A stretch of 64,000 nucleotides of DNA from Candidatus Bathyarchaeota archaeon (GTDB lineage: Archaea; Thermoproteota; Bathyarchaeia; 40CM-2-53-6; DTDX01), in the NCBI GenBank assembly GCA_018396775.1, contig JAGTRF010000002.1, forward strand, positions 14,069-78,068, given 5' to 3'. Of the stretch, positions 4,042 through 52,897 are shown in pieces; within the stretch, counting starts at the first letter, position 1; the number at the start of each line of letters is the position of its first letter. A program made the position numbers and the translations under genes. Below the pieces are notes generated by a model, which saw only the letters and a program-made list of their open reading frames with translations, had not been told where the DNA came from and searched no databases.

Positions 4042-5253
4042 TTGAAAGTTTATATGGCTGTTTGCGGAATAGGTTTAGGGCATGTAACAAGATGTGAGCC
4101 TATAGGTAGATTGTTAAAAAATAAAGGTGTAAATGTTGTTTTTTCAACTTGCTTTGAAGCTGCTAATTATTTAAGAAGAATAGGATACAATATTTTTGAA
4201 ACATTACAAATGAGTTACGCTGTAAATGAAGATGGAACTGTTGATTATAAAGCTTCTTTAGCGTATAACCCAGGTTTTTTTCATGCAATAAAACTTTCTC
4301 TTAAAGAGTTGGCTTATGAATTAAAAAGAATAGAAGAGTATAATCCTAACCTTGTTTTTTCAGATTCTAGAATGGCACCAATTTTAATAGCTAAAATGCT
4401 AGGCATACCTAACGTTTTAATGTTAAATCAATTTAAAGTAAATATTATTAATTCTAGTTTTAATAACTCTTTGATTGAGGAAGCATCATTTAAATTAATG
4501 AAGGTTTTATGGGGTGCTTCAAGCAGTGTTATTGAAGGAATTTGGAGTTTAAGTGACCAAATTTTAATTCCAGATTTACCCTACCCATATACTGTTTCGT
4601 CTAGGAACTTGGCGATTCCAAAAGCTTTTGAGAAGAAAATAAAATTTGTTGGACCTATAATCCCAATTAAATATAGCGATTTGCCTAATGAAGAAACAAT
4701 TAAGAAAGAGTTAAATATCGATGAATCTAAAATAACTGTTTACGCTGTTGTTAGCGGTCCAAAAAAAGAAAAAGCTTGGTTGCTAAATAAACTTATGAAA
4801 ATTCTTCAAGTTTTCCCTGAGAAATATGAGGTGATTCTTTCCAAAGGAGATCCTAAAGGAGATGTAACCTTAAAGAAAATTGGTAAAATTAAAGTTTATG
4901 ATTGGGTTGATGAAGAAACTCAATTTAAGCTTTTTAAAGCATCTGACATTATCGTTGGGAGAGCTGGTCATGGTGTAATAATGAAAGCTTTAGCTTATAA
5001 AAAGCCGATTATTACTATTCCGATTCCGGGTCAAGCTGAACAATATGGAAATGCTGAACGGATTGAACAGTTAAAGCTTGGAAAAATGATTAAGCAAGAG
5101 AAGCTTAATGAAGAAGCTTTGTTAAACGCTGTGGAGAACCTGCTTAAATTAAAAGATAGTAAAGAATTAAATAATGTTTTTAAAGTTTTAAACTCATTTG
5201 ATGCTGTGAAAACAATTTTAAACTTAATCTTAGAAATGCTTAATCAACAATAG
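4042..5253 (+). CDS. GT-B fold glycosyltransferase (GT1/GT28, MurG/UDP-glycosyltransferase-like).
   Basis: N-terminal Gly-rich VCGIGLGHVTRC and C-terminal GRAGHGVIMKAL...PIPGQAEQYGNAERI donor-binding motif. TTG start. Confidence 0.7.
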   Translation: MKVYMAVCGIGLGHVTRCEPIGRLLKNKGVNVVFSTCFEAANYLRRIGYNIFETLQMSYAVNEDGTVDYKASLAYNPGFFHAIKLSLKELAYELKRIEEYNPNLVFSDSRMAPILIAKMLGIPNVLMLNQFKVNIINSSFNNSLIEEASFKLMKVLWGASSSVIEGIWSLSDQILIPDLPYPYTVSSRNLAIPKAFEKKIKFVGPIIPIKYSDLPNEETIKKELNIDESKITVYAVVSGPKKEKAWLLNKLMKILQVFPEKYEVILSKGDPKGDVTLKKIGKIKVYDWVDEETQFKLFKASDIIVGRAGHGVIMKALAYKKPIITIPIPGQAEQYGNAERIEQLKLGKMIKQEKLNEEALLNAVENLLKLKDSKELNNVFKVLNSFDAVKTILNLILEMLNQQ

Positions 5254-6791
5254 CAACTTTTAATTGTTTTAACCTTTAATTCTATAGGATGCGAAATTGA
5301 AGGTAAGCCTTGTTGATACTCAAAAATTTTTTCCTCCCTTCCTTTACGCTCTATTAACCAAATAAATAGATCATAAAGCTTCCGCATTATGAAACTATAC
5401 CATTTTCCTTGAATGTAACAATCTATAATTTCTTTTGCATATTTAATATCGTGGGTTAAGCATTTCACCATTAACTCTTTTTGTAAATCTGTTAAATCCT
5501 CATATTTAAACCAGTCTTTATTTTTTAGTTTACCCATAGGAACAAAAAATAATGGAACAATCATGCTTTTAAACCAATTTAAATCCTCAACTAACTCTAT
5601 AGTTCTAATTACATCGTCATCAATTTCTTCAGGTAAACCAGTTATCAATGTGCAGGCTGGAATTAACCCATAATCATTCATTAAGCCTGCAGCTTTCTCT
5701 ACAACTTCTCGCCATTCTTCAGGCTTAAAAGGCTTAGCTTTAGCTGGCATAGCCAACTTAACTAATCTAGGTGAACCTGTTTCTATACCTATTTGAGCTC
5801 CCCACCATTTTTGATCTTCATCAATAATTATCTCTGAAACTTCTTTAAACAATTTTGGGTCAGCTGCTATAGCAGCCATACTAACATGGCTCCAGCAAAA
5901 ATTCTTCATATATTTTTTAGTTAATTTATGCAGCTCAAGAATTTTTTCTCTATTAGGCATAACTGATTTAGAACCGTAAAGCAGCGCATCTTCAGCGTGA
6001 AGAATCCCTGAAGTTATTCCACCTTTAATGTTTACCTGAAGTTCCTTCTCTATTTTATCAAGTGGATACCATCTTAAAGGCTTTAAAGTTACACTGCAAA
6101 AGTTGCATCCTCTAGGGCATCCTCGTCCAATTTCAATTAAACCATTAATCGATGGATTTTTAATCTCTGAAATCTCATTTAAGCTAGGTAAATTATGAAT
6201 GTTAACTTCAAAATAGCTTGGTAAATCTTCTCCTTTTAAAGCTTTCCTTATAAGATCACCAATAACTCGTTCAGCTTCTCCATCAACTACGCAATCTATT
6301 CCATACTCTTTTTGTTCTTCAACTCTATACTTAAATTGCCAAACTCCAGCTCCTCCTACAATTATTTTTAAGCCATGTTTTTTAGCTTGTTTAACTTCAG
6401 GCTTCATAAATAACTCTTTAAAATACTTTAATAAGTAAGGCTCACCTGTACGAAGAATTCTAGCGAAAGTTGTTGATGAAGGCCCTAAACCAAAAGGATC
6501 CATAACATGAACACATAAAACTTTAGCGTTTTTAATATATTTTTTCAAGTGATCAGGGTCAACTGTAAGCGCGTTAAAACCCTCATCTAAAAGTTTAGCT
6601 TCAATTTTTCTAAGTCCATAAGGCGCCTCAAGCGGTAAACCCCTCTTATTTTTTACTGGAGGGAAAAACATAATTTTATAAAACCATTCTGGTAAAATAT
6701 TCGGCGGAGCACTAGTAGCGAAACCAAGAAACTCTTTCCCACGATAATTACTCATTAATGTTCTATCAGCAGTAAGTATAATATCAACCAA
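5244..6791 (-). CDS. B12-binding-domain radical SAM protein (class B rSAM).
   Basis: 515 aa. CPRGCNFC (CxxxCxxC) at the centre. N-terminal Rossmann-like region consistent with a cobalamin-binding domain. Long C-terminal helical extension. Confidence 0.7.
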   Translation of the reverse strand: MVDIILTADRTLMSNYRGKEFLGFATSAPPNILPEWFYKIMFFPPVKNKRGLPLEAPYGLRKIEAKLLDEGFNALTVDPDHLKKYIKNAKVLCVHVMDPFGLGPSSTTFARILRTGEPYLLKYFKELFMKPEVKQAKKHGLKIIVGGAGVWQFKYRVEEQKEYGIDCVVDGEAERVIGDLIRKALKGEDLPSYFEVNIHNLPSLNEISEIKNPSINGLIEIGRGCPRGCNFCSVTLKPLRWYPLDKIEKELQVNIKGGITSGILHAEDALLYGSKSVMPNREKILELHKLTKKYMKNFCWSHVSMAAIAADPKLFKEVSEIIIDEDQKWWGAQIGIETGSPRLVKLAMPAKAKPFKPEEWREVVEKAAGLMNDYGLIPACTLITGLPEEIDDDVIRTIELVEDLNWFKSMIVPLFFVPMGKLKNKDWFKYEDLTDLQKELMVKCLTHDIKYAKEIIDCYIQGKWYSFIMRKLYDLFIWLIERKGREEKIFEYQQGLPSISHPIELKVKTIKSCYC

Positions 6792-6837
6792 TATTAACCG
6801 CCTCCTAATTTCTAAATAAAAAAGAAGTAAACTGGTT

Positions 6838-8271
6838 TTAATATGGAATTACAGGAGCCAACCTCGCCTCCTCCTTAAGCATCGTGTAAAATGCTTTATT
6901 ATTTATGCAACCAGGGTCTGGAGCTAAGTAATCATTAAAGTAACCATAAGCTCTTGCCCTGCACCCACCACAGTAATATCTATATTCACATGTTCCGCAA
7001 TGTCCTTTTAAAATATCTTTATTTCTAAGATCTTTTAAAACTTTAGAATTAACCCACAACTCCTCTAAATTATCACTTCTAATGTTTCCAAGTTTTAATG
7101 GAAGGAAAACGCATGGTTGAATATCGCCATTAGGTTTTATAGCTATGTAAAATCTACCTGCGCCGCATCCCCCTATAAATTCAGCTAAACTTTTAATTTT
7201 TTCCCTTGATTTAGATGAATAAAAATGGCTTAAAACTAAAGCCTCGCTTTGGCAGGATGCTTCTAAGGAAACTCTAGCGAATTGAGGCGCTGTAGAAAGC
7301 ATAGCTACATTTGAATTTTGCATTCTTTCATAAAGCATTTTTAAAAGTTCTTCTCTTTCATCAGGCGTTAAATCTAGTTCTGTAATATCAACACCTCTTC
7401 CAGTTGGAATAAAATTATAAGCCATAAACCAATCTACGCCAAGCTTTTCACATAAATCCAATATTTTAGGGATTTCTTTATAATTCAACTTAGTGATTGT
7501 GGTTGAAACTTCAACAAAAAATTCTTCAGCTATAACGTTTTTAATTCCTTCAACAGCTTTATTAAATGCTCCTGGAACACCCCTAAAATAATCATGTGTT
7601 TCAGCTACAGCTCCATCAAGGCTAATTTGCACATAATCTATTCCAGCTTCCTTCATAGCTTTAGCCTTCTCTTTAGTTATTAAGGTAGCGTTTGTAGCTA
7701 CAGCTACATAAATTCCTTTATCAGATGCATATTTAGCAAGCTTAAGAAAATCTCTTCGCATAAACGGTTCTCCACCAGAAAAAGCTAAAATTGTTATACC
7801 AAATTTATCAAGCTTATCTATTGCTTTTAAAGCTTCCTCTGTATTTAACTCATTTACTTCTGCCCCTGCATTAGCTGAGCAATGCTTACACCTTAAATTA
7901 CAAGCATTAGTTACTTCCCAAACTACTTGAAAGGGGGCCCCTGGAGTAAAAGGTTTTGTAACACCAAATAAACCTAACCCTTTAACTACGCTGCTTAACC
8001 CCCTTCTCCAATATGAGTCAGCAAAAGTCTTCTTCATCTCTTCTTCTGAAACATTAAAGCTTCTTCTCCCAATCCTCAAAATTAAGCTTAAGATTTTTTC
8101 AGCAGCTTTACATTTTAAGCAAGCATCAGCTCTAACGCCTGAGTAAAGCTCTAAACCAGCTTCCAATCTATTTTTTCCATCTTTTTCGCAATAAGTTGAA
8201 ATATTTTTTAGTAAACTTCTTGTTAAAAGATTATTAGAAATTAACTTAAATGCCCGAATTTTCCCTTCCAA
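6838..8271 (-). CDS. Radical SAM protein with a C-terminal SPASM/twitch domain and a roughly 100-aa N-terminal extension carrying 3 Cys.
   Basis: CNLRCKHC rSAM motif. C-terminal GGCGAG...C...CGTCEYRYYCGGC Cys cluster typical of SPASM peptide/cofactor maturases. Confidence 0.75.
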   Translation of the reverse strand: MEGKIRAFKLISNNLLTRSLLKNISTYCEKDGKNRLEAGLELYSGVRADACLKCKAAEKILSLILRIGRRSFNVSEEEMKKTFADSYWRRGLSSVVKGLGLFGVTKPFTPGAPFQVVWEVTNACNLRCKHCSANAGAEVNELNTEEALKAIDKLDKFGITILAFSGGEPFMRRDFLKLAKYASDKGIYVAVATNATLITKEKAKAMKEAGIDYVQISLDGAVAETHDYFRGVPGAFNKAVEGIKNVIAEEFFVEVSTTITKLNYKEIPKILDLCEKLGVDWFMAYNFIPTGRGVDITELDLTPDEREELLKMLYERMQNSNVAMLSTAPQFARVSLEASCQSEALVLSHFYSSKSREKIKSLAEFIGGCGAGRFYIAIKPNGDIQPCVFLPLKLGNIRSDNLEELWVNSKVLKDLRNKDILKGHCGTCEYRYYCGGCRARAYGYFNDYLAPDPGCINNKAFYTMLKEEARLAPVIPY

Positions 8272-8709
8272 ATTTTAAAACGCTCCGGTTAAATATACCT
8301 ATTTAACACCGAAAAATCTGAAATTTTATTTTATAAAAGAAGGTATTTAAAGCTTTCCGTGCTTTAAAAGAGATTGAAAAATAAGAGTTATCGCCTTCCT
8401 AAACCTTTTTAAAGGTTTAGCGATTTAAAGTAATGAACACTTTTACAAGAGTTTTGAATTAAGCTTCAGTTTACCTACTCTACGGTAAAGCTTTAGAAAG
8501 GCTTATAGCTGCAGATAAAACGAAAAGTAAGCTTAACGGTAAATAGCTTTCGCCTTTAAATTGTAATATGTGGATGAAAAAGAAATTTTGCAAAATGCTT
8601 GAATTCTTCATTAAAAGCATAGATTTATTTATTGAGTTTACTAAAGCTTGCTATACTGCTATTAGGAAAGCTCATTTTACCACCAATTGCATTGTAACAA
8701 AAATTAATT

Positions 8710-9843
8710 TTAATAGCTTCCAAGCAAATGGATATTTCCTATATAAACATTTCTTAAAAATTTTTTAGCGATTTTATAACAGTTTAATGCTTGAATTCTT
8801 GGTGTTATAGGTAAATCTTGCATCATAAAATCTGGGTGGAAAACTAAAAGCGAATATGGAATTTCATGGTTTAAACTTGAAATAAACTCTGAAATATTCT
8901 TTATCTCCTCTTCATCTACATAACCTGGAACCAAAAGTGTTGTAGCTGATAAAACGGGTAAATGCTCTCTTTTATTATAAAACTCTTTAGCTATAAACTC
9001 AAAGTTTTCATAAGCTTTTTTATTTGAGACTCCGCTTAAAGCTAAGCTTAAATTTTCATCGAAGCATTTTAAATCAAACTTAATGTTTCCACCGCTTTTA
9101 AAAGCTAATTCAACCGCTTCTTTAACTAAAAACTTGTTTCCACAACCATTCCACTCAAAGCAAACTCTAATTATTCTATTAGGATTTTCTTCAAGAATCT
9201 TTTTTGATGAAGCTAAAGCGAATGGAAGTTGAGGTTCAGGTGAACCGCCGAAAAAACATATACAAGAGTATTTTTCATCATTTTTAACAATTTTAGTAAA
9301 TTCGTTTAAAGATATTATTGAACCCAACTCTATATTTTTATGAGAAGCATTTTGACAAAATAAACAGTTAAAGTTGCATCCATAAAAGAATACAGCCAAA
9401 TTTTTATATCCTATTTCTGGCCCTTTAGTGTAAGTAAATTTTGGGTAGCCTACTCCTGTTCCAGCTGGGCAAAACCATGCGTTGCAGCAATTTGTAACAT
9501 GAGGATCTGGATACCAATGTAAAACTGCTTTCTCAACGTTTGATAAAGAAATTATTTTTCCATTTAAATTTCTTTTTAAACCGCAGTAGCTTCTCTCTCC
9601 GCTCCCAATTACGCATTCATTAGCGCATAAATTGCATGGAACTCCCCCCAAAGATTTAGGAGAAGTTGAAGGTAAATTGTATAAAGCTCTAACGTTTTCA
9701 TGAGTTTTCATTATTAAAGGTTTAGCTTCCTCAGGTTTTTCTTTAATGCATTTACCGCAAAGATTAAGAATGCTTGAAATTAACTCTCCTTTTTTACCGC
9801 AAAGCTTACATTCCTTATGCTTAAACATATTAAAACGAAACAT
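8710..9843 (-). CDS. Radical SAM protein with a Cys-rich N-terminal zinc-ribbon-like extension (AmmeMemoRadiSam or PFL-activase-like).
   Basis: GCNFNCLFCQN (CxxxCxxC). N-terminal CKLCG...CGKC and CNLCANEC...C motifs. Confidence 0.6.
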   Translation of the reverse strand: MFRFNMFKHKECKLCGKKGELISSILNLCGKCIKEKPEEAKPLIMKTHENVRALYNLPSTSPKSLGGVPCNLCANECVIGSGERSYCGLKRNLNGKIISLSNVEKAVLHWYPDPHVTNCCNAWFCPAGTGVGYPKFTYTKGPEIGYKNLAVFFYGCNFNCLFCQNASHKNIELGSIISLNEFTKIVKNDEKYSCICFFGGSPEPQLPFALASSKKILEENPNRIIRVCFEWNGCGNKFLVKEAVELAFKSGGNIKFDLKCFDENLSLALSGVSNKKAYENFEFIAKEFYNKREHLPVLSATTLLVPGYVDEEEIKNISEFISSLNHEIPYSLLVFHPDFMMQDLPITPRIQALNCYKIAKKFLRNVYIGNIHLLGSY

Positions 9844-9845
9844 TT

Positions 9846-10250
9846 TTGAGCAGGGAAAAAATATTTTTAAAGGAAATTATGGGCAACTTTTCTTTAATAA
9901 TAATTATTTCATACGCGGTTATATTAACTTTATTTATCCTTGTAGGAATATTAAATATTAAAGATATGAAAGTTAAAAAAAGAGATAGATGGGTTAAAAA
10001 AGATTCTATAGCGATGATTATAAGAGTATTGTTTTATGGTTTTTTAATAAGCTTTGCAATCATCGAGCTTGAAGCTTTAATTTTAATGTTTGGACGTTTT
10101 TCGCTTCAGTTTTTTGCTGGAAAAAGCTTACCTATTTATGTTTCTCGTTCTCTTTTAATTCTACCTATTCTCCCAGTTATTTTAATTGGGGTAGTTTATG
10201 CTATAGCTAAAAAGAGGGAATGGTATGAGCTTATTGATGAAGAAGAATAA
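9846..10250 (+). CDS. Small integral membrane protein (3 predicted TM helices). Translationally coupled to the AAA-Lon gene.
   Basis: Hydrophobic segments. The stop overlaps the start of 10225..12978 by 26 nt. Confidence 0.5.
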   Translation: MSREKIFLKEIMGNFSLIIIISYAVILTLFILVGILNIKDMKVKKRDRWVKKDSIAMIIRVLFYGFLISFAIIELEALILMFGRFSLQFFAGKSLPIYVSRSLLILPILPVILIGVVYAIAKKREWYELIDEEE

Positions 10251-12978
10251 TAGCGAGTATGAGTTTAAACCTTGGTGGATTCAACATCCTAAGCTTAGCA
10301 CCTTACTAAGTTTTCCATTATACGTTACAACTAGAGAGTATCGAAGATGGAGAAATGCTAAGTTAACCCCTAGAAAGCTTCAAAAATTAATTAAAGAGCT
10401 TGATAAAAACTATCCATCTAAAAGAGAAAAGCTTGTTGGAAGAGATAAAGAATATGAGCTTATAATGTCTAGCATAACATTTCATGTAGTTCAAGAGAAA
10501 TGCATAAAAGAACTGCTTAAAGATGCTTCGCCACCAAAATTTTTTATTCTTAAAGGCGCAAGTGGAACTGGAAAATCTTTGCTGGCTGAAGTATGCATTA
10601 GAGAGGGCGTTTTACATGGTATAAGAAATGGTGTAAACGTTCAACCAATTTTTGTTAAGGGACCTGAAGTTTTTGATCCTCTTTATGGGCAATCAGCTAG
10701 GAATTTAATGGCTATTTTTGATAAAGCTTTTAATACACCAAGCATAATTTTCATAGATGAGTTTGAAAGCTTCGCTAAAAAAGTGGATACAGCTAAAGCT
10801 GCAAGAGTAGCTGAAATGGAAGATTTAAGAGTTCAAAGTCTTTTTATAAACAATTTAAGAAGGCTTTTAGATACACAAACAAGAACAATTTTAATAGCTG
10901 CTACAAACATGTATGAAGCTATTAGAGAAGATATAAGAAGAAGAGCTTTTACAATAGATTTAGATCAAAACATAACTAGAGAAATGCTTTTAGCTATTTT
11001 AGCTTCAGAGCTTAAAAGCCATGATTGGACATATTTAAATCCTGAAGAAGTTATGGTAACTTTAGAGAAGGGTGTAAGTATTTATAGGCAAACGCAACTA
11101 TCCCCCTTTGATATAATTGATGCTTGCAATAAAGTTAGAGAAAAGAAAATAGCGCCTATTAGAAAAAGCCTTTTTGAAAGGTTGGAGAGAAAATTAACTC
11201 AGAAAAATGAGGTTAAATATAAAGTTTCAATAGAAGATTTTGAAGCTGTAGCGAGAGAGCTTAGAGGGTATATTGAACAAGAGAAAAGCACTGAGGTTAT
11301 GAGCGCGGTTTTAAAAATAAAACCTTCAATAACCTACGATGATGTTGGAGGATTATTTAATATAAAAGAGAAAATCTTTAAAACTATTTCTTTAAGTTTA
11401 AAGCCTGAGCTTGTAAATAAGCTTGGTTGGATACCGCCTAAAGGCTTCATTCTTTGGGGGGAACCTGGATGCGGTAAAACTCATATTTCTAAAGCTATAG
11501 CTAGAGAGAATGGCGCTGAATTCTTTTATGCTCCAGCAGCTCAACTTCTTATTAACGCTAAATGGGTTGGTGAACCAGAGAAAAATGTTAGAGATTTATT
11601 TGCGATAGCTAGAAAAACCGCTCCAAGCATAATTTTCTTTGATGAATTTGATATAATAGCTGGAAAACGTAAAGGCGACCCTGTAGGCGATAGAATAACT
11701 GCTCAAATATTAACTGAGCTTGATGGGTTGCAACCTCTTGAAAACGTTATTGTTATAGCTGCTACAAATAGGCTTGAAGCTGTTGATGAAGCTGTTTTAA
11801 ATAGATTTGAACCAAACATTATAGAGGTTCCATTACCAAGGAACGATGCTGAAAGAAAAGATATAATTAAAATTCATTTAAGACATTATGTAGAGCATTT
11901 AGATCAGGAAGTTACTATTGATAACGTGCTTAAAATAATAAAAAAACATAGAATTGTTTCCCCAAGAGTTGTCGCAGAAATAATAAGGTCAGCTAACCGT
12001 TTAAGAACTCAAGAAATTATAGCTTCTTGGGAGCTTAAAAAAGGAGATGAAGCTTATAAAAGTAAAGTTTTAAAAATGTTTCATGAGGATATAAAAAGGC
12101 TTTGTGAAGTATTAAATTTAAATGAGGAAGAGTTGATTAAAAATCATGCTGAGTTAACTGGAGAAAACTATAAGGTTAAGCTTTACCATTTTGAGAAAGC
12201 TGCTCAACAACTTGAGCAGGATATTGATAAAGAATTAATGGATGTTCAAGAAAGCGCTGTTTTTGAAGAACCTGAAACTGGCGTGGCTTATGGGCTTGGA
12301 ACAGATCCCACAGGTAGAAGAGGAGTAATACTCATAGTTGAATGTGTAATAAACCCAAATGGAAATGGAAAAACTGTTGTAACTGGCGCGTCTAAATCTA
12401 CAATTATTGGTCCAACAGCTATTGAAGATACAAGCGTGATTGAAAGCGCTGTGAATGTAATTGAATATATTAAGAAATATGTTAGAGAAAAGATTGGTGA
12501 AGAAATTTCAAAATTTGATTTTATATTTGAAGTTGTTAGCCCATTAGAGGGGGCTTCTGGATTAGGAGTAAGCGGTCCAAGCTTAGGAGTAGCCTTCAGC
12601 GTAGCAGCTGTTTCAGAGCTTGCTCAAATAGAAGTTGAATCAACGGTAGTTATGACTGGAAAAGGAGATATTAAAGGAAATATTGGTCCTGTTGGGGGAG
12701 TTGGCTGGAGAGGAGCAGGAAAATTTCTTGCAGCTATAAAAACTAAAAAAATGAAAATCAACAAGTTTTTGCTTCCAAAATGGAATTATGAAAACTCTAA
12801 AGACGAATGGGAAATTTTAATAGAAAAAAACATTAACGTCATCCCCATTCAAAAACAATTAGAAGCTTGGCTTCACTCATTTAATGTTACTGAAGAAGAA
12901 TTATTAAGAAAACTTTCTATACAGCTTAAATCTTTAAAGTTTAAATCTGTAAGCTATCCTGAAGTTAAAGAAGTTTAA
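10225..12978 (+). CDS. Tandem AAA+ ATPase fused to a Lon-type (S16) protease domain.
   Basis: AAA-1: Walker A GASGTGKS, Walker B IIFIDEFE. AAA-2: GEPGCGKT, IIFFDEFD, and SRH TNRLEAVDEAVLNRF. C-terminal SGPSLG (Lon catalytic Ser motif) and GAGKFLAA (candidate catalytic Lys). Confidence 0.75.
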   Translation: MSLLMKKNNSEYEFKPWWIQHPKLSTLLSFPLYVTTREYRRWRNAKLTPRKLQKLIKELDKNYPSKREKLVGRDKEYELIMSSITFHVVQEKCIKELLKDASPPKFFILKGASGTGKSLLAEVCIREGVLHGIRNGVNVQPIFVKGPEVFDPLYGQSARNLMAIFDKAFNTPSIIFIDEFESFAKKVDTAKAARVAEMEDLRVQSLFINNLRRLLDTQTRTILIAATNMYEAIREDIRRRAFTIDLDQNITREMLLAILASELKSHDWTYLNPEEVMVTLEKGVSIYRQTQLSPFDIIDACNKVREKKIAPIRKSLFERLERKLTQKNEVKYKVSIEDFEAVARELRGYIEQEKSTEVMSAVLKIKPSITYDDVGGLFNIKEKIFKTISLSLKPELVNKLGWIPPKGFILWGEPGCGKTHISKAIARENGAEFFYAPAAQLLINAKWVGEPEKNVRDLFAIARKTAPSIIFFDEFDIIAGKRKGDPVGDRITAQILTELDGLQPLENVIVIAATNRLEAVDEAVLNRFEPNIIEVPLPRNDAERKDIIKIHLRHYVEHLDQEVTIDNVLKIIKKHRIVSPRVVAEIIRSANRLRTQEIIASWELKKGDEAYKSKVLKMFHEDIKRLCEVLNLNEEELIKNHAELTGENYKVKLYHFEKAAQQLEQDIDKELMDVQESAVFEEPETGVAYGLGTDPTGRRGVILIVECVINPNGNGKTVVTGASKSTIIGPTAIEDTSVIESAVNVIEYIKKYVREKIGEEISKFDFIFEVVSPLEGASGLGVSGPSLGVAFSVAAVSELAQIEVESTVVMTGKGDIKGNIGPVGGVGWRGAGKFLAAIKTKKMKINKFLLPKWNYENSKDEWEILIEKNINVIPIQKQLEAWLHSFNVTEEELLRKLSIQLKSLKFKSVSYPEVKEV

Positions 12979-19089: not shown

Positions 19090-20109
19090 ATGGAAAATTT
19101 AATTGAAACTAAAAACAATTTAATTTTACCAAGTAAAATCAGAGTTTCCATCGGTTCAGCGATATTAATTGGATTAAAAAAAGGTTTTATAAATGCCCTT
19201 CCAGAAACAATTTATTTAATGACTTTTCATGAAGGGAAATGCCTTGCTAACTGCGGTTTTTGCGCTCAAGCAAGAGAAAGTAAAACTGATTTAAACCATT
19301 TATCTAGAGTAGCTTGGCCTATTTTTGAAACAGAAAAAGTTTTAAATAAAATAGAGGAATCCCTGAAAAAAGCGAAACGAATTTGCATTCAAGCATTAAA
19401 TTACCCTAATTCTTTTAATGATGTTGCAAGCTTAGCAAAAGCATTAAGAAAATTTAATATTCCTATATCTATTTCATGTCAACCTTTTAATGAAACGCAA
19501 TTCCATATGTTAAAAGTTATTGGCGTAGATAAAATCTCTATACCATTAGATGCATCTACAAAAGAAATTTTTGAAGAAGTTAAAGGTTTAAAAAGAAAAA
19601 GCCCATACATTTGGGAAGCCCATTTTGAAGCTTTAAAAAAAGCTGTTAAAATATTTGGTGAAGGAAACGTTACAACGCATTTAATTTTAGGTTTAGGAGA
19701 AACTGAACGTGACGTTTGTTTTTTAACCCAAAAATTAACTGATATAGGTGTTAACATAGCTTTATTCGCTTTAACACCTATAAAAGGCACGTTTCTAGAA
19801 AACTTTAAATCCCCTTCAATAAACTATTATCGAAAAGCTCAATTAGCTAGACATCTAATTGTTAACCGTTATATTAAATTTAGTAAAATTAAATTTAATG
19901 AAAAAGGAGAAATAATTGATTTAGGTTTACCTAAAAAAGAATTGCTAAAGATAACTCTATCTGGGAAACCGTTTTTAACTTCAGGATGCCCAAATTGCAA
20001 TCGACCATATTATAATGAAAAAGTTTCAGGCCCAATATATAATTTCCCTAAAGCTTTAACAGAAAAAGAAATAAATGAGGTTTTATACTCATTAACATCT
20101 ATTCTTTAA
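19090..20109 (+). CDS. Radical SAM protein, candidate archaeal lipoyl synthase component (LipS1/LipS2 family).
   Basis: CLANCGFC motif. Positioned directly upstream of a split lplA and a second rSAM, the reported lipS-lplA arrangement. Confidence 0.55.
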   Translation: MENLIETKNNLILPSKIRVSIGSAILIGLKKGFINALPETIYLMTFHEGKCLANCGFCAQARESKTDLNHLSRVAWPIFETEKVLNKIEESLKKAKRICIQALNYPNSFNDVASLAKALRKFNIPISISCQPFNETQFHMLKVIGVDKISIPLDASTKEIFEEVKGLKRKSPYIWEAHFEALKKAVKIFGEGNVTTHLILGLGETERDVCFLTQKLTDIGVNIALFALTPIKGTFLENFKSPSINYYRKAQLARHLIVNRYIKFSKIKFNEKGEIIDLGLPKKELLKITLSGKPFLTSGCPNCNRPYYNEKVSGPIYNFPKALTEKEINEVLYSLTSIL

Positions 20110-20123
20110 AGGGAGGTCGGTTT

Positions 20124-20894
20124 ATGATTGAAGAATGGCGTTTAATCGAATTAACTATAAATGATGCATATATGAATATGGCTATAGATGAGGCTATTTT
20201 AACTATGATTCAAAAAGGTGAATCTCAAAATACGATAAGATTTTATAGATGGAATCCATCAGCTGTTTCTATCGGATACTTCCAAAGTTTAATTGAGGAA
20301 GTTAACATTGAAACATGCAGAAAACTTAATGTAGACATAGTGAGGAGAATAACTGGAGGAGGCGCTGTTTACCACGATTATAATGGAGAAATAACTTACA
20401 GCGTTATAGCCTCTACAAATAACCCGAAAATTCCAGGGAATATTCTAAAATCCTATAGCGTTTTATGCAATGGAATAGTTTTAGGGTTAAAAAAGCTTGG
20501 TTTAAACTCTACCTTTAAACCTATAAACGATATTGTTGTTAATGAGAAAAAAATTTCTGGAAACGCTCAAACAAGAAAATTGAATGCTATTCTTCAACAT
20601 GGAACAATTTTAATTGATGTTAATGTAGAGAAAATGTTTAATCTACTTAAAATAAGCGATGAAAAAATAAAGGATAAAATGATTAAATCTGCGAAAGAAA
20701 GAGTTACAAGCATTAAAAAAGAGTTGAATAAGGAGGTTAGCTTCAGCGAGGTTGCTGAAGCTTTAAAAAATGGTTTTGAAGAAGCTTTAAACATAAAGCT
20801 TTCTTTAGGAAAGCTTACGCAAGAAGAGAAATCTTTAGCTGAAAAATTAAAGAAGGAAAAATACTCTGCAAAAGAGTGGCTTTATAAAAGGTGA
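20124..20894 (+). CDS. lplA: Lipoate-protein ligase A, catalytic (N-terminal) domain protein.
   Basis: RRITGGGAVYHD and KISGNAQ motifs of the BPL/LplA/LipB family. 256 aa. Confidence 0.8.
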   Translation: MIEEWRLIELTINDAYMNMAIDEAILTMIQKGESQNTIRFYRWNPSAVSIGYFQSLIEEVNIETCRKLNVDIVRRITGGGAVYHDYNGEITYSVIASTNNPKIPGNILKSYSVLCNGIVLGLKKLGLNSTFKPINDIVVNEKKISGNAQTRKLNAILQHGTILIDVNVEKMFNLLKISDEKIKDKMIKSAKERVTSIKKELNKEVSFSEVAEALKNGFEEALNIKLSLGKLTQEEKSLAEKLKKEKYSAKEWLYKR

Positions 20895-20900
20895 AAAACT

Positions 20901-21179
20901 TTGATTAAATTTGAGTATAAAGTACCTGGGGGAAAACTCATCAAAGTTTTAACCTCTATAAAAAATGATGTTATAGAAGAGATTAAAATAACAGGAGACT
21001 TCTTTCTTCACCCAGAGGAATCTATAGAGATTCTTGAGCAAAAATTAAAAGGCATGAAAATTGAAGAAGAGTCATTAATAAAAAATATTATTAACGAGTT
21101 TTTTAAATCTAAAACCTTAATTGGAGCATCTTCAGAAGATTTCTTCTTAGCTGTAAAGGGAGCTTTAAGTAAAGCCTAG
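20901..21179 (+). CDS. Lipoate-protein ligase C-terminal accessory domain protein (LplA-C/LplB).
   Basis: 92 aa, immediately after lplA-N. Archaeal split-LplA arrangement. Confidence 0.55.
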   Translation: MIKFEYKVPGGKLIKVLTSIKNDVIEEIKITGDFFLHPEESIEILEQKLKGMKIEEESLIKNIINEFFKSKTLIGASSEDFFLAVKGALSKA

Positions 21180-21184
21180 CTAAG

Positions 21185-22162
21185 GTGCAGGAAACTCTGA
21201 ATCTTCAAGATTTAAAACTAGAAGAAGAAATAAAGCTTGCTAGAGAAGCTTCCTGGAAAAATCTTGGAAGAAAAATAGTTTTCTTTACTCCAAGCTTCAT
21301 TTATTATAAAAAACATTTTTCTCCTTGGAGTTTTCCGTCAATTTCTATAACTGGAGAAAGCTGCGCTTTAAAATGCGATCATTGCGATGGAAAAATATTG
21401 AAAACTATGATTCCTGCTTTAACTCCCAAAAAATTAATAGATGTTTGCATGGAGATTGAAAAACATAAAGGTTTAGGATGCTTAATAAGCGGTGGCTGCT
21501 TAATAAATGGGGTTGTTCCATTAAAAAATTTTTCAAAAGCCATTAAAGAAGTTAAATCAAAAACTAAATTAAAAATTGTTGTGCATACAGGGTTAATAGA
21601 TGAGGAAACAGCTTTCAGCCTTAAAGAAGCTGGTGTTGACGCAGCTTTAATAGATGTTATTGGAAGCGAGAAAACCTTAAAAGAAATATACCATTTAAAC
21701 ACTAATGTTGAAAGCTTTGATAAATCTTTAAGCATTATTAATAAAGCTGGTCTCCCGCTTATCCCTCATATTTTAGTCGGTCTTCAGCATGGAGAAATTG
21801 AAGGTGAATATAACGCGCTTAACATTATTTCCCGCTATAACCCATCTGCTTTAATAGTAATCGTTTTCTTTCCAATTAAAGGAACTAAAATGGAAAAAGA
21901 TGATCCTCCAGCTATTCCTAAAGTGATTAAATTTATAGCGTTTGCAAGAAAAGTTTTTTCAGGCACACCTATAGCGTTAGGTTGCGCTAGACCAACAGGC
22001 GCTTATAGAGTTAAATTAGATTCATTAGCTGTTAAAACCGGCGTAAACGGTATAGCTTTTCCAGCTGAAGAAGCTGTTGAATTAGCTAAATCTTTAAATT
22101 TAGAGATTTTATATTCTAATGTTTGCTGCTCTCAAATTTATGAAGAGTATTTAAAAACTTGA
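21185..22162 (+). CDS. Radical SAM protein, second candidate lipoyl synthase component (LipS1/LipS2 family).
   Basis: ESCALKCDHCDG motif. TIM-barrel-like rSAM. Same operon as lplA. Confidence 0.55.
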   Translation: MQETLNLQDLKLEEEIKLAREASWKNLGRKIVFFTPSFIYYKKHFSPWSFPSISITGESCALKCDHCDGKILKTMIPALTPKKLIDVCMEIEKHKGLGCLISGGCLINGVVPLKNFSKAIKEVKSKTKLKIVVHTGLIDEETAFSLKEAGVDAALIDVIGSEKTLKEIYHLNTNVESFDKSLSIINKAGLPLIPHILVGLQHGEIEGEYNALNIISRYNPSALIVIVFFPIKGTKMEKDDPPAIPKVIKFIAFARKVFSGTPIALGCARPTGAYRVKLDSLAVKTGVNGIAFPAEEAVELAKSLNLEILYSNVCCSQIYEEYLKT

Positions 22163-27832: not shown

Positions 27833-28774
27833 ATGACCAGAATATTTTTCGCGACCGATGTTCACGGTTCAGAAAAATGCTGGAAAAAATTTGTTAACGC
27901 TGGAAAATTTTATAAAGCTAACATCTCAATTTTAGGCGGAGATTTAACTGGTAAAGCTGTAATTCCAATAGTGAGCGAAGGCAACAACATTTATAAAGTG
28001 AATTTTTTAGAGCAGGATTTTAATTTAAAATCTAGTGAAGAGCTTGCTGAAATGGAGTATAAAATAGTTAATTCAGGTTATTATCCATATATTGTTTCTC
28101 GTGAAGAGTTAAAAGAGTTAAGTGTTAATCCAGATAAAGTTAATAAAATTTTTGAGCAGTTAATGACTGAGCGGTTAGAGAATTGGTTAAGGTTTGCTGA
28201 TGAAAAATTAAAGGGTTCAGGGATTAAAGCGTATGTTTGCCCAGGAAACGATGATCCATTCATAATTAACGAGTTAATTAAGAAATCTGAAGTTATAGAA
28301 AATGCTGAGGGAAAAGTTGTTGAGGTAGATTCTTATCATGAAATGATAAGCTCTGGATGGACTAATGTAACTCCATGGAAAACTTTTAGGGAATGCAGTG
28401 AAGAAGAGCTTGAAAGAAAAATAGAAGAAATGACTCAAAAAGTTAATAATTTGAGAAACTGTATTTTTAATCTTCACGCTCCACCATATGGATCTGGGCT
28501 TGATGAAGCTCCCCAATTAGATGAAAGCCTTAAGCCTATTTATGGAGGGCAGGTTTTAATGCCTGTTGGAAGTAAAGCTGTTAAAGAAGCTATAGAAAAA
28601 TATCAACCGCTTCTCGGGCTTCACGGGCACATTCATGAAGGTAAGGGTTTTTCACGCATTGGAAGAACTTTATGCATTAACCCTGGCAGCTCTTATGAAG
28701 AAGGAACATTGTTAGGCGCTATAATTGATTTAGATAAAGGAAAAATAGTTAGACATATGCTTGCAACAGGTTGA
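27833..28774 (+). CDS. Calcineurin-like metallophosphoesterase. Paralog of 49148..50182.
   Basis: DVHGS, GGD, GNDD and GHIHE metal-ligand motifs. About 50% identical by eye to the second copy. Confidence 0.75.
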   Translation: MTRIFFATDVHGSEKCWKKFVNAGKFYKANISILGGDLTGKAVIPIVSEGNNIYKVNFLEQDFNLKSSEELAEMEYKIVNSGYYPYIVSREELKELSVNPDKVNKIFEQLMTERLENWLRFADEKLKGSGIKAYVCPGNDDPFIINELIKKSEVIENAEGKVVEVDSYHEMISSGWTNVTPWKTFRECSEEELERKIEEMTQKVNNLRNCIFNLHAPPYGSGLDEAPQLDESLKPIYGGQVLMPVGSKAVKEAIEKYQPLLGLHGHIHEGKGFSRIGRTLCINPGSSYEEGTLLGAIIDLDKGKIVRHMLATG

Positions 28775-30215
28775 AAGGAAGGAGAATTTTATGCTTAAAT
28801 TTTTATCTAATAATGAGGTTTTAGAAATTCATAACGCCTCCTTAAAAATGTTGAATAAGCTTGGCGTAATAATAAAACATGAAAAACTTCTTAAAATGCT
28901 TAAGGATGCTGGAGCTGACGTTGATGAAGAAAAGCAGTTAGCTAGACTTCCAATATACTTGATTGAAGAGTTTGTTAGTAAAGCTCCAAGCGGGTATATT
29001 ATGGGCGGTCGAAAAAGAGAATATGATTTATATGTTGGAGATGGTAAAAGTTATGTTAGGAGTCAAGGTGGCTGCGATCGTATCTTAGATTTAGAAACAG
29101 GTGTTATTAGAGAAGCTAATACAAACGATGTTATTAACGCTACAATCATTCAAGATGCTTTAGAAAACATTCATTGGTGCGCAAGCTTTCTTCATCCAAG
29201 TGATGAACCTCCAATGACAAGAGATCTTTATCAATTAATGCTAATGATGGAAAATACTGTAAAGCATATAGTAGCTCAACCATATACAACTGAATCTTTT
29301 AAGTATCAAGTTAAAATGGCTAAAGCTATCATTGGAGATGAGGAAGAATTCATGAAAAGACCTCTTATAAGCGTTTTTGTTGGGCCAACAAGCCCGCTGG
29401 AAATAGATAAACATAACTGCGAGCTTATAGAAATAGCTGCTAAAAATAGAATTCCAATAATGCCTGTTAGCGCTCCTATAGCTGGCGCTACTGGTCCAGT
29501 AACTTTAGCTGGGTTAGCAGCTTTAGCTCACGCTGAAATAATGATGATTGTTGTTTTAACTCAATTAATTAATCCAGGTGCTCCAATAGAGTATACACCT
29601 AGACCTAACACTATGGATATGCGAACTGCTCAATCACTTTGGGGAGCCATAGAATATGCGTTAACTTCAGCTATTGGGGTTCAATTAGCTAGGCTTATTA
29701 AGCTTCCAGTATGCGTTCAATGCTTAAGCACAGACTCTAAGCTTCCAGATGCTCAAGCTTGCATAGAGAAAACTATGCAAATAACTTTAGCAGCTTTAAT
29801 GAAGCCTGATACGATGACTGGTGCTGGAGGAATAGATTCTGTTAAAACTGCAAGCTTAGAGCAATTAGTAATCGATAATGAAATAATAGGTATAGCTAAA
29901 AGAATTGCTAAAGGGGTTGAAGTTAACGATGAAACAATTGCTTATCATGTTATCGAAAGAGTTAAGCATGGCGGCCATTTTCTAGCTGATAAACATACCA
30001 GCAAATATTATTTTGAGGAGCATTATATACCTAAGCTTTTTGATAGAAATGCTAGAGGAGCATGGGAAGCCGCTGGCGGAAAAGACTTAACAACTAAAGC
30101 AAAAGAAACTGCAAAGAAAATTCTTAAAGAATATGAGCAGAGACCATTAGATGAAGATGTTAAAAAAGACTTAAGAAAAATAATGGATGAAGCTAGAAAA
30201 AACTTGGTTAAATAA
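28761..30215 (+). CDS. MttB-superfamily corrinoid-dependent methyltransferase, non-pyrrolysine type (quaternary-amine methyltransferase-like).
   Basis: PLISVFVGPTSPLE, LEQLVIDNEII and AWEAAGGKDL match trimethylamine methyltransferase blocks. Uninterrupted ORF with Ser/Thr in the region where MttB carries pyrrolysine. Confidence 0.8.
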   Translation: MQQVERKENFMLKFLSNNEVLEIHNASLKMLNKLGVIIKHEKLLKMLKDAGADVDEEKQLARLPIYLIEEFVSKAPSGYIMGGRKREYDLYVGDGKSYVRSQGGCDRILDLETGVIREANTNDVINATIIQDALENIHWCASFLHPSDEPPMTRDLYQLMLMMENTVKHIVAQPYTTESFKYQVKMAKAIIGDEEEFMKRPLISVFVGPTSPLEIDKHNCELIEIAAKNRIPIMPVSAPIAGATGPVTLAGLAALAHAEIMMIVVLTQLINPGAPIEYTPRPNTMDMRTAQSLWGAIEYALTSAIGVQLARLIKLPVCVQCLSTDSKLPDAQACIEKTMQITLAALMKPDTMTGAGGIDSVKTASLEQLVIDNEIIGIAKRIAKGVEVNDETIAYHVIERVKHGGHFLADKHTSKYYFEEHYIPKLFDRNARGAWEAAGGKDLTTKAKETAKKILKEYEQRPLDEDVKKDLRKIMDEARKNLVK

Positions 30216-50818: not shown

Positions 50819-52204
50819 ATGAGGAATGAAAATTTGCCTCCTATAAGTTTTATTGAAGTTTTAAATCGAAGCTTGACAGGTCCAGTTTCATCAGAAAAAG
50901 AGTTTGATTATAAAGTTGGCATGAAATTAAGAGAGCTTGTAAAAAAATATGATATTAAATATAATCCAGAAAACCCAATCCCATCTGACAATAGTTTAGC
51001 TGATGATGTATTTAAAGCAGCTGTAGAATTTTATACTGATGTAGGCACTTATTGCATGGATACCGAGCGAAGAATAACATTTACAGAGGATGAAATTAAA
51101 GAAGGAATAAAAAATGTGCCACATGCAACCCTTTTTGGGGAAGGAAATGAAGCAAAATTTTTCTCTGCTAGAACGCTTGAAAGCTCTGAGCATCCATGGT
51201 GTCATGTAGGTGCTGGAATAGCCGTATCCAGTGAAGAACTATTAGTAAAACTTGTTGAAGCTTTTGCAAGCATTCCTGAAACTGATTCCGTAAGCGTTCC
51301 TACATTAACTGAGGTTGATGGCGTTCCTATAAGAACACCGCCATTAGAAGTTTATGGATCAATAAGAATGATTGCTTTAGCTCATGAAGCTATGAAAAGA
51401 GCCGGTCGCCCAGGTTTACCGATTTTAAATTTAGTTTCTACAGCAGCTTCTCAAATAGCTGGAATAGCTGCAACAGCTCCTCAATTTGGGATAAAACCAA
51501 CAGATGGATGGCTTGTAGATGCTTTCCCAGATTTAAAAATGTATAACGATGTTTTAACTAAAGCAGCTTACCTGTTAAACTGGGGCGCAAATATAGGTGC
51601 ATGTTATACACCATTAATAGGTGGATACTCTGGAGGACCTGAAGGAACAGCTATAATGAGTGTTGCTTACTCGATAAACGGGATAATGGTGTTAAAATCA
51701 AGATATCAACTTTACTATGTTTCAAATATAGTAAACGGTTCATCAAGCAGTAGAGACGCTCTTTGGGCTTTATCAGTTAGCGCGCAAGCAATAAGCAGAA
51801 ACATTAAAGTACCTATAATTCATTTATCTTATCAAGCTGCTGGAGCTGCTACAGAAATGCTATTATATGAAATTACAGCAGCTATATTAGCGTCGGTGGC
51901 TTCCGGCATCTCAGTAGAAAGCAACCATCCATCTAAAGCTGTGTTAACCGATCATATAATCCCTATGGAATCTGAATTTTATTGTAAAGTTGCGCATGCT
52001 GTTACTGGCATGAAAAGAAGTGAAGTAAATGAACTTGCAAAAATCCTATTACTTAAATATGAGAAGGATTTAAATAATCCGCCTAAAGGAAAAAAATATC
52101 AAGAATGTTATGATGTTAAAACAGGTAAACCAAAGGAAGAGTATTTAAAATTCTATAAAGTTATGGAGAAAAAAATTATTGATTTAGGAATACAAATTGA
52201 ATAA
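50819..52204 (+). CDS. MtmB-family (monomethylamine methyltransferase-like) corrinoid-dependent methyltransferase, non-pyrrolysine.
   Basis: C-terminal PKGKKYQECYDVKTGKPKEEYLKFY resembles the MtmB C-terminus. AGRPGLPILNLVSTAASQIAG aligns where MtmB encodes Pyl. The ORF is uninterrupted. This rests on my recall of MtmB sequence. Confidence 0.65.
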   Translation: MRNENLPPISFIEVLNRSLTGPVSSEKEFDYKVGMKLRELVKKYDIKYNPENPIPSDNSLADDVFKAAVEFYTDVGTYCMDTERRITFTEDEIKEGIKNVPHATLFGEGNEAKFFSARTLESSEHPWCHVGAGIAVSSEELLVKLVEAFASIPETDSVSVPTLTEVDGVPIRTPPLEVYGSIRMIALAHEAMKRAGRPGLPILNLVSTAASQIAGIAATAPQFGIKPTDGWLVDAFPDLKMYNDVLTKAAYLLNWGANIGACYTPLIGGYSGGPEGTAIMSVAYSINGIMVLKSRYQLYYVSNIVNGSSSSRDALWALSVSAQAISRNIKVPIIHLSYQAAGAATEMLLYEITAAILASVASGISVESNHPSKAVLTDHIIPMESEFYCKVAHAVTGMKRSEVNELAKILLLKYEKDLNNPPKGKKYQECYDVKTGKPKEEYLKFYKVMEKKIIDLGIQIE

Positions 52205-52239
52205 AGTTTATAAAAATAACAAATGGAGGGAAAATTAGG

Positions 52240-52884
52240 TTGTCTTCTAAAGAAGAGATTTTAAATAAGGTTGTTTTGGATTTGTTTAGTTATGATGTTG
52301 ATGGTATTAGGGTTGATGTTGAAAAGGCTTTAGAAAAAGGTTTTTCGCCTTTAGAGGTTATTAACGCCTTATCTAATGGTATGCGTGAGATTGGTGATAA
52401 GTTTGCTAGGCTTGAGCTTTTCTTAACTGATTTAATGATGGCTGGTGACACGATGAAGGCTGCTTTAGAAATATTACTGCCTAAAATTCCTAAAGATAAA
52501 GCTGTAAGTAAAGGCAAAATTGTTATTGGAACTGTTAAAGGGGATATTCATGAAATAGGCAAGAATATTGTTTCAGCCATGTTGACAGCTTCAGGTTTTG
52601 AAGTTTACGATTTAGGGAAGGATGTTCCAGCTTCAAGGTTTCTTGAGGAAGCTGAGAAATTTAAAGCTAATATTATAGGCGCTTCAGCATTAATGACAAC
52701 AACAATACCCGCCTTAAAAGATTTAATAGAATATGTTAAGGCTAAAGGCTTAAGAAATAAATATAAAATAATAGTTGGTGGAGGACCAGTAACAAAAGAA
52801 TATGCGGAGGAAATAGGTGCAGACGCATATGCGGAAAACGCTGTAGAAGCCGTTAAAACAATAAAAAACCTAATAGAAAAATAG
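52240..52884 (+). CDS. Corrinoid (cobalamin-binding) protein, MtmC/MttC-like.
   Basis: Helical cap plus Rossmann B12 domain with GDIHEIGKNIV (DxHxxG). TTG start after GGAGGG. Confidence 0.8.
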   Translation: MSSKEEILNKVVLDLFSYDVDGIRVDVEKALEKGFSPLEVINALSNGMREIGDKFARLELFLTDLMMAGDTMKAALEILLPKIPKDKAVSKGKIVIGTVKGDIHEIGKNIVSAMLTASGFEVYDLGKDVPASRFLEEAEKFKANIIGASALMTTTIPALKDLIEYVKAKGLRNKYKIIVGGGPVTKEYAEEIGADAYAENAVEAVKTIKNLIEK

Positions 52885-52897
52885 AGGAGACACATAT

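Follow-up and report, generated by a model that had tools for sequence, protein, structure and literature searches.

A gms homolog and a Grs-type radical SAM gene form a putative tetraether-tailoring pair in an uncultured Bathyarchaeon

We analysed a stretch of 64,000 nucleotides (nt) from an uncultured Candidatus Bathyarchaeota archaeon (assembly GCA_018396775.1, contig JAGTRF010000002.1, positions 14,069 to 78,068), which is called the window below and has a G+C content of about 32%. The analysis centres on four adjoining genes at its positions 4042-9843, three for radical S-adenosylmethionine (SAM) proteins and one for a glycosyltransferase (GT). Two of them are its main subject: a homolog of gms, the gene for glycerol monoalkyl glycerol tetraether (GMGT) synthase, and a gene related to grs, which encodes the synthase that forms rings in glycerol dialkyl glycerol tetraethers (GDGTs). 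Genes were taken from open reading frame (ORF) calls and classified by scans with hidden Markov models (HMMs) of Pfam and NCBIfam, and AlphaFold2 (AF2) models were used for the gms homolog and the grs-type protein. The features of the locus are the following.

4042-5253, + strand: GT-B glycosyltransferase, 403 residues (ORF call, Pfam/NCBIfam)
5244-6791, - strand: grs-type radical SAM gene, 515 residues (ORF call, NCBIfam/Pfam, AF2)
6801-6806, - strand: Shine-Dalgarno-like AGGAGG before the grs-type gene (direct reading of the sequence)
6838-8271, - strand: gms homolog, radical SAM/SPASM, 477 residues (ORF call, Pfam, AF2)
8272-8709, no strand: intergenic gap of 438 nt between the third radical SAM gene and gms
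8344-8358, - strand: conserved promoter-like box GGAAAGCTTTAAATA, similar to a B recognition element/TATA box, upstream of gms (intergenic alignment with loci L081 and L094)
8710-9843, - strand: third radical SAM gene, 377 residues, similar to pyruvate formate-lyase (PFL) activases and AmrS (ORF call, NCBIfam)

The ORF calls and HMM scans placed the four genes at the coordinates and in the classes given by the initial annotation. Its classes for the three radical SAM genes also held at the level of the scans, with Radical_SAM and SPASM for the gms homolog, Radical_SAM and weak TIGR04013 and TIGR04014 matches for the grs-type gene, and, for the third gene, a PFL-activase/AmrS-like match together with a Cys-rich N-terminus. 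The GT had been described as standing head-to-head with the radical SAM genes, which is incorrect: the GT and the grs-type gene are convergent (tail-to-tail), and their 3′ ends overlap by 10 bp. None of the four locus proteins reached a curated NCBIfam cut-off. The nearest relatives of all three radical SAM proteins, with 82-94% identity, were found in metagenome-assembled genomes (MAGs) of Candidatus Bathyarchaeia.

The protein encoded at 6838-8271 matched Radical_SAM and SPASM in Pfam. The NCBIfam model for AhbD (TIGR04545) scored 313.2 bits against a cut-off of 500, and its alignment begins at residue 116. Residues 1-110, which include an N-terminal extension of about 100 residues, are conserved across phyla: full-length identities of 55-64%, the first 110 residues included, were observed across Bathyarchaeia, Thermoplasmata, Archaeoglobi, Methanomethylicia, Methanomassiliicoccales and Asgard archaea. 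In the AF2 model (predicted local distance difference test score, pLDDT, 79.7) exactly six helices are predicted in residues 2-102, followed by the radical SAM barrel, a two-helix bridge and the SPASM domain. The radical SAM motif is CNLRCKHC. An alignment of 16 sequences showed C124, C128, C131, G166-G167-E168, C369, C387, C425, C428, C434, C437 and C455 to be invariant, so that the CX3CX2C and GGE motifs and seven conserved cysteines in the SPASM region are all present.

This architecture has a published counterpart. Two papers from 2024 identified extended AhbD homologs as GMGT synthase, named Gms or alternatively Hbs, and described an N-terminal six-helix domain (COG4001), a radical SAM domain, a bridging segment, and a SPASM domain that carries two auxiliary clusters (Li et al., PMC11186832; Garcia et al.). 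AhbD serves as the outgroup in both, and the extra N-terminal domain defines Gms. The closest link to these studies is the ortholog MBS7658551.1 (P0003), whose locus is fully syntenic and whose sequence, over 100% of its length, has 85% identity with the window protein. In the sheet ‘Archaeal domain-Gms-homologs’ by Li et al. (2024) it is entered with 52.38% identity to the Gms of M. okinawensis, an E-value of 1e-130 and 477 residues; these figures rank with the highest that the sheet gives for Bathyarchaeota. The likeness of the window protein to the M. okinawensis enzyme was thus measured indirectly, through this ortholog, and the listed values lie within the published thresholds for Gms (E<1e-50, >30% identity and >420 residues in Li et al.; E<=1e-80 and >=400 residues in Garcia et al.). 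No exact copy of the window protein occurred in the contig collection searched. Because the ortholog is catalogued, the six-helix extension is present and the motif cysteines are invariant, we assign the protein, by sequence, as a Gms homolog of the GMGT synthase type. With the known Gms/Hbs proteins (M. okinawensis METOK_RS04425, T. guaymasensis X802_RS00105, P. furiosus PF0647) it shares the AhbD-like radical SAM/SPASM core, the size of about 475 residues, the six-helix extension of about 100 residues, the three sets of cluster-binding cysteines, an anaerobic archaeal host and the clustering with grs and gmm. It differs from them in that it stems from an uncultured Bathyarchaeon, is known from sequence and has a grs-type gene as its only partner.

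The similarity to AhbD also raises another explanation, namely that the SPASM gene encodes a heme or siroheme pathway enzyme (AhbD, AhbC or NirJ-like) and that the pair belongs to housekeeping tetrapyrrole metabolism. The top NCBIfam matches were indeed AhbD (313 bits), NirJ2, NirJ1 and AhbC, and some database entries for Gms homologs carry the name ‘heme biosynthesis protein’. However, AhbD/NirJ-type enzymes provide the nearest curated HMMs for the radical SAM and SPASM core: all scores are below the curated cut-offs (500-650), the first 115 residues are unaligned, and the domain that separates Gms from AhbD is present and conserved in the window protein. Moreover, no further ahb genes were found nearby in the window. 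We therefore regard a role in tetrapyrrole metabolism as very improbable and reject AhbD, AhbC and NirJ as identities, since each of them stays under its cut-off and is without the N-terminal domain. Tes/GDGT-MAS was also ruled out as an identity of this protein; its match to 7tol is limited to the radical SAM core (E 2e-12).

For the protein encoded at 5244-6791, Radical_SAM was the sole Pfam match, and the weak matches in NCBIfam (TIGR04013 and TIGR04014) are to B12/radical SAM families. Its AF2 model (pLDDT 82.7) consists of beta/alpha repeats in residues 1-195, a barrel in residues 218-415 and helices at 435-460 and 466-486. The top folds retrieved from the PDB were the B12-dependent radical SAM enzyme MgmA, then MiaB/RimO and TsrM, and the same fold search found no Grs structure in the PDB. 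The radical SAM motif is CPRGCNFC; the other conserved cysteines of the family (C167, C380 and C444) are isolated and form no auxiliary cluster. The published architecture of GrsA and GrsB comprises a Rossmann-like fold, a partial TIM barrel and C-terminal helices, likewise with no auxiliary cluster. The window model agrees with that of the known GrsA/GrsB (Saci_1585, Saci_0240; TK0167) in the Rossmann-like N-terminal domain, the barrel with a single CX3CX2C motif and the two elongated C-terminal helices, and the gene lies next to gms.

The comparison with GrsA was made over 35 residues, read at four places in the AF2 coordinate file that accompanies Li et al. In it, GrsA residues 14-31, RCLMTNHHGKEFLGFLGT, align without gaps to window residues 10-27, RTLMSNYRGKEFLGFATS, with 11 of 18 positions identical, and GrsA residues 103-119, DYFAFGPPSSTWWGITK, to window residues 98-113, DPFGLGP-SSTTFARIL, with 8 of 17 identical. 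Over the 35 residues read, 19 are identical and the order is colinear; a rough estimate gives about 33 bits. An alignment of 30 homologs showed that both matching stretches are family-invariant motifs. The motifs shared with the published GrsA model can be written as RxLM[ST]N..GKEFLGF, near the N-terminus, and DxFxxGP(x)SST. This motif identity is good evidence, on partial sequence, that the window protein is homologous to Grs. The family to which it belongs comprises 181 cluster representatives (50% identity clusters) at E<=1e-30, and the identity of its full-length members ranges from 54% to 29%. For 20 representatives that were looked up, the names obtained were M. kandleri, Ca. Odinarchaeum yellowstonii and MAGs. 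The Ca. Odinarchaeum yellowstonii genome appears among the encoders of GrsA, GrsB and Hbs in a supplementary sheet of Garcia et al., who applied a Grs threshold of E<=1e-20 and >=400 residues. Sequence and model together point to a Grs-family (GDGT ring synthase-type) enzyme, with GrsA, GrsB and unclassified clades all being possible placements.

The genomic context of gms was surveyed in 80 species-level loci, 59 of which have at least 1.7 kb on both sides. A grs-type gene stands directly beside gms in 12 of the 80: nine of these loci are from Thermoplasmata (57-62% identity), and Thermoproteota, Baldrarchaeota and other Bathyarchaeia contribute one each (38-42%). Three gene orders were observed, gms-grs, grs-gms and gms-gmm-grs. 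A grs-type gene also adjoins gms in L090 and L091, with unrelated flanks. A hot-spring contig with a homolog 63% identical to the window grs-like protein carries the same gms-grs pair among wholly different flanking genes. On two other Bathyarchaeia contigs the grs-type gene has no gms beside it. The other recurrent gms neighbour is a canonical B12-binding radical SAM gene (PF02310 and PF04055, about 460 residues, Gmm-like), which was seen beside gms at 24 of the 80 loci, and one or both of these partners were present at 30 of the 59 loci with sufficient flanks. A TrmB-family regulator is frequently located upstream of gms in the 80 loci. Thus, the grs-type gene is genomically associated with GDGT-modifying genes in the 12 loci, in L090/L091 and in the present lineage. 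Clusters of gms, grs and gmm are already contained in published work (Garcia et al.), and Gms is described as often clustered with the B12-dependent radical SAM methylase Gmm and with grs. Our results show that the gms-grs pair is a recurrent, non-obligatory module, as previously published. The conservation of the neighbourhood, suggested by the initial annotation as a check on all three radical SAM genes, therefore holds in part: the adjacency of gms and grs recurs across phyla, whereas that of the third gene does not.

The grs-type gene of the window lies outside the family of Gmm/Hgm, the MoeK5-like, canonical B12-binding methylase of GMGTs, to which it has about 21-24% identity (E 1e-4 to 1e-9). 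In a Thermoplasmatales MAG, the grs-type gene beside gmm-gms (L013, 5730-7196) is broken into three ORFs, either because it is a pseudogene with a frameshift or because the assembly is faulty there.

In the window, the grs-type gene follows gms after a spacer of 46 nt, within which AGGAGG stands 9 nt before the TTG start codon. The GGAAAGCTTTAAATA box, which lies upstream of gms at about 73 nt from its start, probably serves as a promoter. Because of the 46-nt spacer with its AGGAGG and the conserved promoter-like box upstream of gms, the two genes would be co-transcribed as a bicistronic operon with its own promoter.

Considering these data, we think it likely that gms and the grs-family gene constitute a two-gene operon that tailors GDGTs, the membrane-spanning tetraethers, of this uncultured Bathyarchaeon. 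The family assignment, the architecture, the operon-like spacing and the recurrent linkage are shown by the present analysis. The chemistry of both enzymes would follow that of their characterised homologs. Gms would carry three [4Fe-4S] clusters (one radical SAM and two SPASM auxiliary clusters) together with its N-terminal helical lipid-binding domain and would cross-link the two chains of a tetraether lipid to yield GMGT. The grs-family enzyme would most likely form cyclopentane rings in the same chains, with a GrsA-like (C-7), a GrsB-like (C-3) or other activity.

Several observations weigh against this interpretation. Neither the grs-type nor the Gmm-like partner is adjacent to gms in 47 of the 80 loci, and neither tes, which makes the GDGT substrate, nor gmm was found in the 64-kb window. 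In the grs-type protein, the B12-binding domain PF02310 was not detected at E<=0.001 (Gmm-like neighbours at other gms loci match it with E 1e-21 to 1e-29), and its N-terminal domain, of the B12-binding type, has D98-x-F-x-x-G in place of DxHxxG, with His exchanged for Phe. Binding of cobalamin may be proposed from the predicted fold only. The label ‘B12-class’, given to this gene earlier, finds support in its architecture, through the weak NCBIfam matches and the modelled Rossmann-like N-terminal domain (best folds MgmA, MiaB and TsrM), and not in PF02310. The protein differs from GrsA and GrsB in having no Pfam B12-binding call, and its likeness to GrsA is known from the fold and from 35 residues of a supplementary model, for which the text names no source organism. 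Finally, ring formation is not certain, because homologous B12-type lipid radical SAM enzymes differ in activity.

This last point leads to the alternative that the grs-like gene has another lipid-tailoring activity (methylation, desaturation or a cross-link) despite its Grs-type family. Homologous B12-type archaeal lipid radical SAM enzymes include both methylases (Gmm, Cgm and Pgm) and a desaturase (Ted). In addition, Garcia et al. retained a category of ‘unclassified Grs’, and the window protein is only 29-54% identical to the other cluster representatives of its family. However, the diverged examples known so far belong to the Gmm/MoeK5-like canonical B12 family and not to the Grs family. 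Both the motifs sampled from GrsA, which the window protein strongly shares, and the agreement of its predicted architecture with GrsA speak for a ring synthase, and we consider a different reaction unlikely, though worth keeping in mind. The suggestion that the locus reflects archaeal lipid tailoring, in which B12-type and multi-cluster radical SAM enzymes act on isoprenoid chains, is therefore borne out by the Gms and Grs-family genes; it is not supported for the third radical SAM gene or for a head-group role of the GT.

Elsewhere in the window, a methyltransferase-cognate corrinoid protein is encoded at 52240-52884 (+), within the region 50819-54268 (+), where two paralogous proteins of about 460 residues flank it. 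These paralogs have no NCBIfam match at E<=1e-10 and may be uncharacterised corrinoid-dependent methyltransferases. A sub-threshold match to MttB-type methyltransferases was found at 28761-30215 (+). Corrinoids are clearly in use in this organism, and this bears on a B12-type Grs.

The locus had also been compared to those for tailoring of cofactors or of ribosomally synthesized and post-translationally modified peptides (RiPPs). In such a locus the SPASM enzyme would mature a peptide or cofactor, the B12-type radical SAM enzyme would methylate it, and the precursor would be hidden in the gap at 8272-8709. Peptide maturases are common among SPASM enzymes, and the window protein has sub-threshold NCBIfam matches to PqqE, the mycofactocin maturase and sactipeptide maturases. 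The gap of 438 nt is also unusually long. It contains only short ORFs of 21-66 residues. No Rfam match was found in it, no part of it is repeated in the rest of the window, and none of the fetched loci showed translated similarity to it. In relatives the gap shrinks to 186 bp (L081) and 120 bp (L094); about 280 nt of it are unique to this genome, and the GGAAAGCTTTAAATA box is the sole part that aligns. Thus, the search of the gap for short ORFs, recommended by the initial annotation, yielded none that is conserved in relatives. Moreover, the SPASM protein matches families of the AhbD/NirJ type better than RiPP maturases, and among Gms homologs it is catalogued through its ortholog. The recurrent neighbours in the 80 gms loci are lipid-type radical SAM genes and the TrmB-type regulator, the latter being the sole recurrent small ORF; a recurring small peptide gene, protease or transporter was not found among them, nor a conserved precursor ORF beside the maturase. 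With a Gms homolog as its SPASM protein and a gap devoid of conserved ORFs, the locus lends no support to the comparison with RiPP or cofactor loci, and we regard this explanation as scarcely credible.

A further idea is that all four genes act as a single unit. They are contiguous both in the window and in close relatives (L081-L083 and L094), including syntenic ones with Gms identities of 85% and 76%. A corresponding lipid-tailoring island would include a GT that adds a hexose to the tetraether head group and a third radical SAM enzyme that remodels the head group, in the manner of calditol synthase, or the chains, and Gms and Grs would tailor the core. Precedents exist, as calditol synthase is itself a radical SAM enzyme encoded on some Thermoplasmata grs/gms scaffolds (Garcia et al.), and a GT is required ahead of the action of Cds according to the literature. 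However, the flanking housekeeping genes in these relatives (thermosome, RpoK, a RimI-like GNAT, an M50 protease and AAA-Lon) are equally syntenic, and the co-location of the GT and the third radical SAM gene therefore carries no functional signal. In none of the 80 more distant loci was a GT or third radical SAM homolog found within 10 kb of gms. The third gene is also separated from gms by the 438-nt gap, which holds the conserved promoter-like box of gms itself. Altogether six radical SAM genes are present among about 60 window genes, among them LipS1, LipS2 and Elp3 with confident housekeeping assignments; a third radical SAM neighbour by chance is therefore plausible and unremarkable. We conclude that the third radical SAM gene and the GT neighbour gms-grs through lineage-specific synteny. 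The single unit is unsupported, since both genes adjoin gms/grs solely in syntenic close relatives, and an island of four lipid genes appears distinctly unlikely.

The third radical SAM protein has a core like that of the PFL-activating enzyme or AmrS. The AmmeMemoRadiSam model TIGR04337 scored 70.8 bits against a cut-off of 220 and covers only residues 154-372, which does not support membership in this family; no AMMECR1 motif was found in the window and no Memo gene nearby. With AmrS and the activases of glycyl-radical enzymes it shares the CxxCxxxC...C motif that precedes the core and the CNFNCLFCQN core. Unlike AmrS, it adds an N-terminal, Zn-ribbon-like CxxC...CxxC and TNCCxAWFCPAGTG, and it has no AMMECR1 or Memo gene nearby. 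All of these motifs, CNFNCLFC as the radical SAM motif included, are invariant in its family, which has 4383 matches at E<=1e-5 and is named by no curated model. Members from Bathyarchaeia, Nezhaarchaeales, Hecatellales, Nitrososphaerales and Thermoprotei are 56-62% identical. The Nitrososphaerales are an order of typically aerobic ammonia oxidisers. In L084-L088 the neighbours of the third gene are unrelated. Those in three distant genomes, from Nitrososphaerales, Nezhaarchaeales and another Bathyarchaeon, are related neither to lipid genes nor to each other; gms and grs were sought beside the distant homologs and not found. The family occurs in Nitrososphaerales MAGs, and this order is reported to be without Gms (Li et al., PMC11186832), a statement on the order and not on the MAGs that carry the third gene; the occurrence argues against a Gms-linked role. 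The third radical SAM protein therefore belongs to a separate family that is widely conserved in TACK archaea (Thaumarchaeota, Aigarchaeota, Crenarchaeota and Korarchaeota) and probably lies outside the lipid module.

The GT matched Glyco_trans_1_3 and Glyco_tran_28_C in Pfam, and the MJ1255/VC2487 family of NCBIfam below threshold (109.7 against a cut-off of 195.9). It has the GT-B fold and the C-terminal Glyco_tran_28_C domain of MJ1255/VC2487-family and MurG/GT1-type enzymes; it differs from the MJ1255/VC2487 family in falling under the family cut-off and in having no conserved link to lipid genes. Co-location with gms and grs was observed solely in L081-L083 and L094. No homolog of gms, grs or the third radical SAM gene was present at the seven GT loci from farther relatives (43-45% and about 28-32% identity). 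One could still imagine that the Cys-rich radical SAM family and the GT carry out a new modification of the tetraether head group or chains, by analogy with the glucosyltransferase that precedes calditol synthase, or, as a variant, that the grs-like enzyme catalyses a non-cyclase reaction on GMGTs; we consider this quite improbable. On a metagenome contig (L095, 7308-9215), a GT homolog with 43-45% identity starts one base after an AMMECR1 gene. The window GT lies about 3.5 kb from the AmrS-like radical SAM gene, and the likeness of the two arrangements may be a coincidence.

With the operon of gms and a grs-family gene as the preferred interpretation, most of the locus is in line with what is known: the two families have been published, as have their clustering and abundance in Bathyarchaeota, and the catalogue already contained a close ortholog. 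One more Bathyarchaeial genome can thereby be counted among those with the genes for H-shaped (GMGT) tetraethers, which would probably bear rings. GMGT-type lipids serve as biomarkers in environmental and palaeoclimate work, and a stiffening effect on membranes is attributed to them. The result fits published surveys in which Bathyarchaeota are a major reservoir of Gms homologs, and it refines the attribution of sources and leaves the overall picture unchanged. Some interest attaches to the third radical SAM gene, as its large and highly conserved TACK-archaeal family is without an assigned function.

Further genes of the window were noted in passing. The gene at 10225-12978 (+) encodes an unusual protein of 917 residues, in which two AAA+ modules (CDC48/PAN-like) and a C-terminal Lon protease domain are joined. 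The gene before it encodes a membrane protein of 134 residues without a family match, and the pair is kept in L081 and L094. At 19090-22162 (+), LipS2 (335 bits), an LplA-like protein and LipS1 (257 bits) are encoded in this order, representing the two-protein archaeal lipoyl synthase and a lipoate-protein ligase. Finally, the gene at 54762-55943 (+) encodes a bifunctional Fae/Hps (tetrahydromethanopterin hydro-lyase/3-hexulose-6-phosphate synthase), with a confident NCBIfam match of 593 bits.

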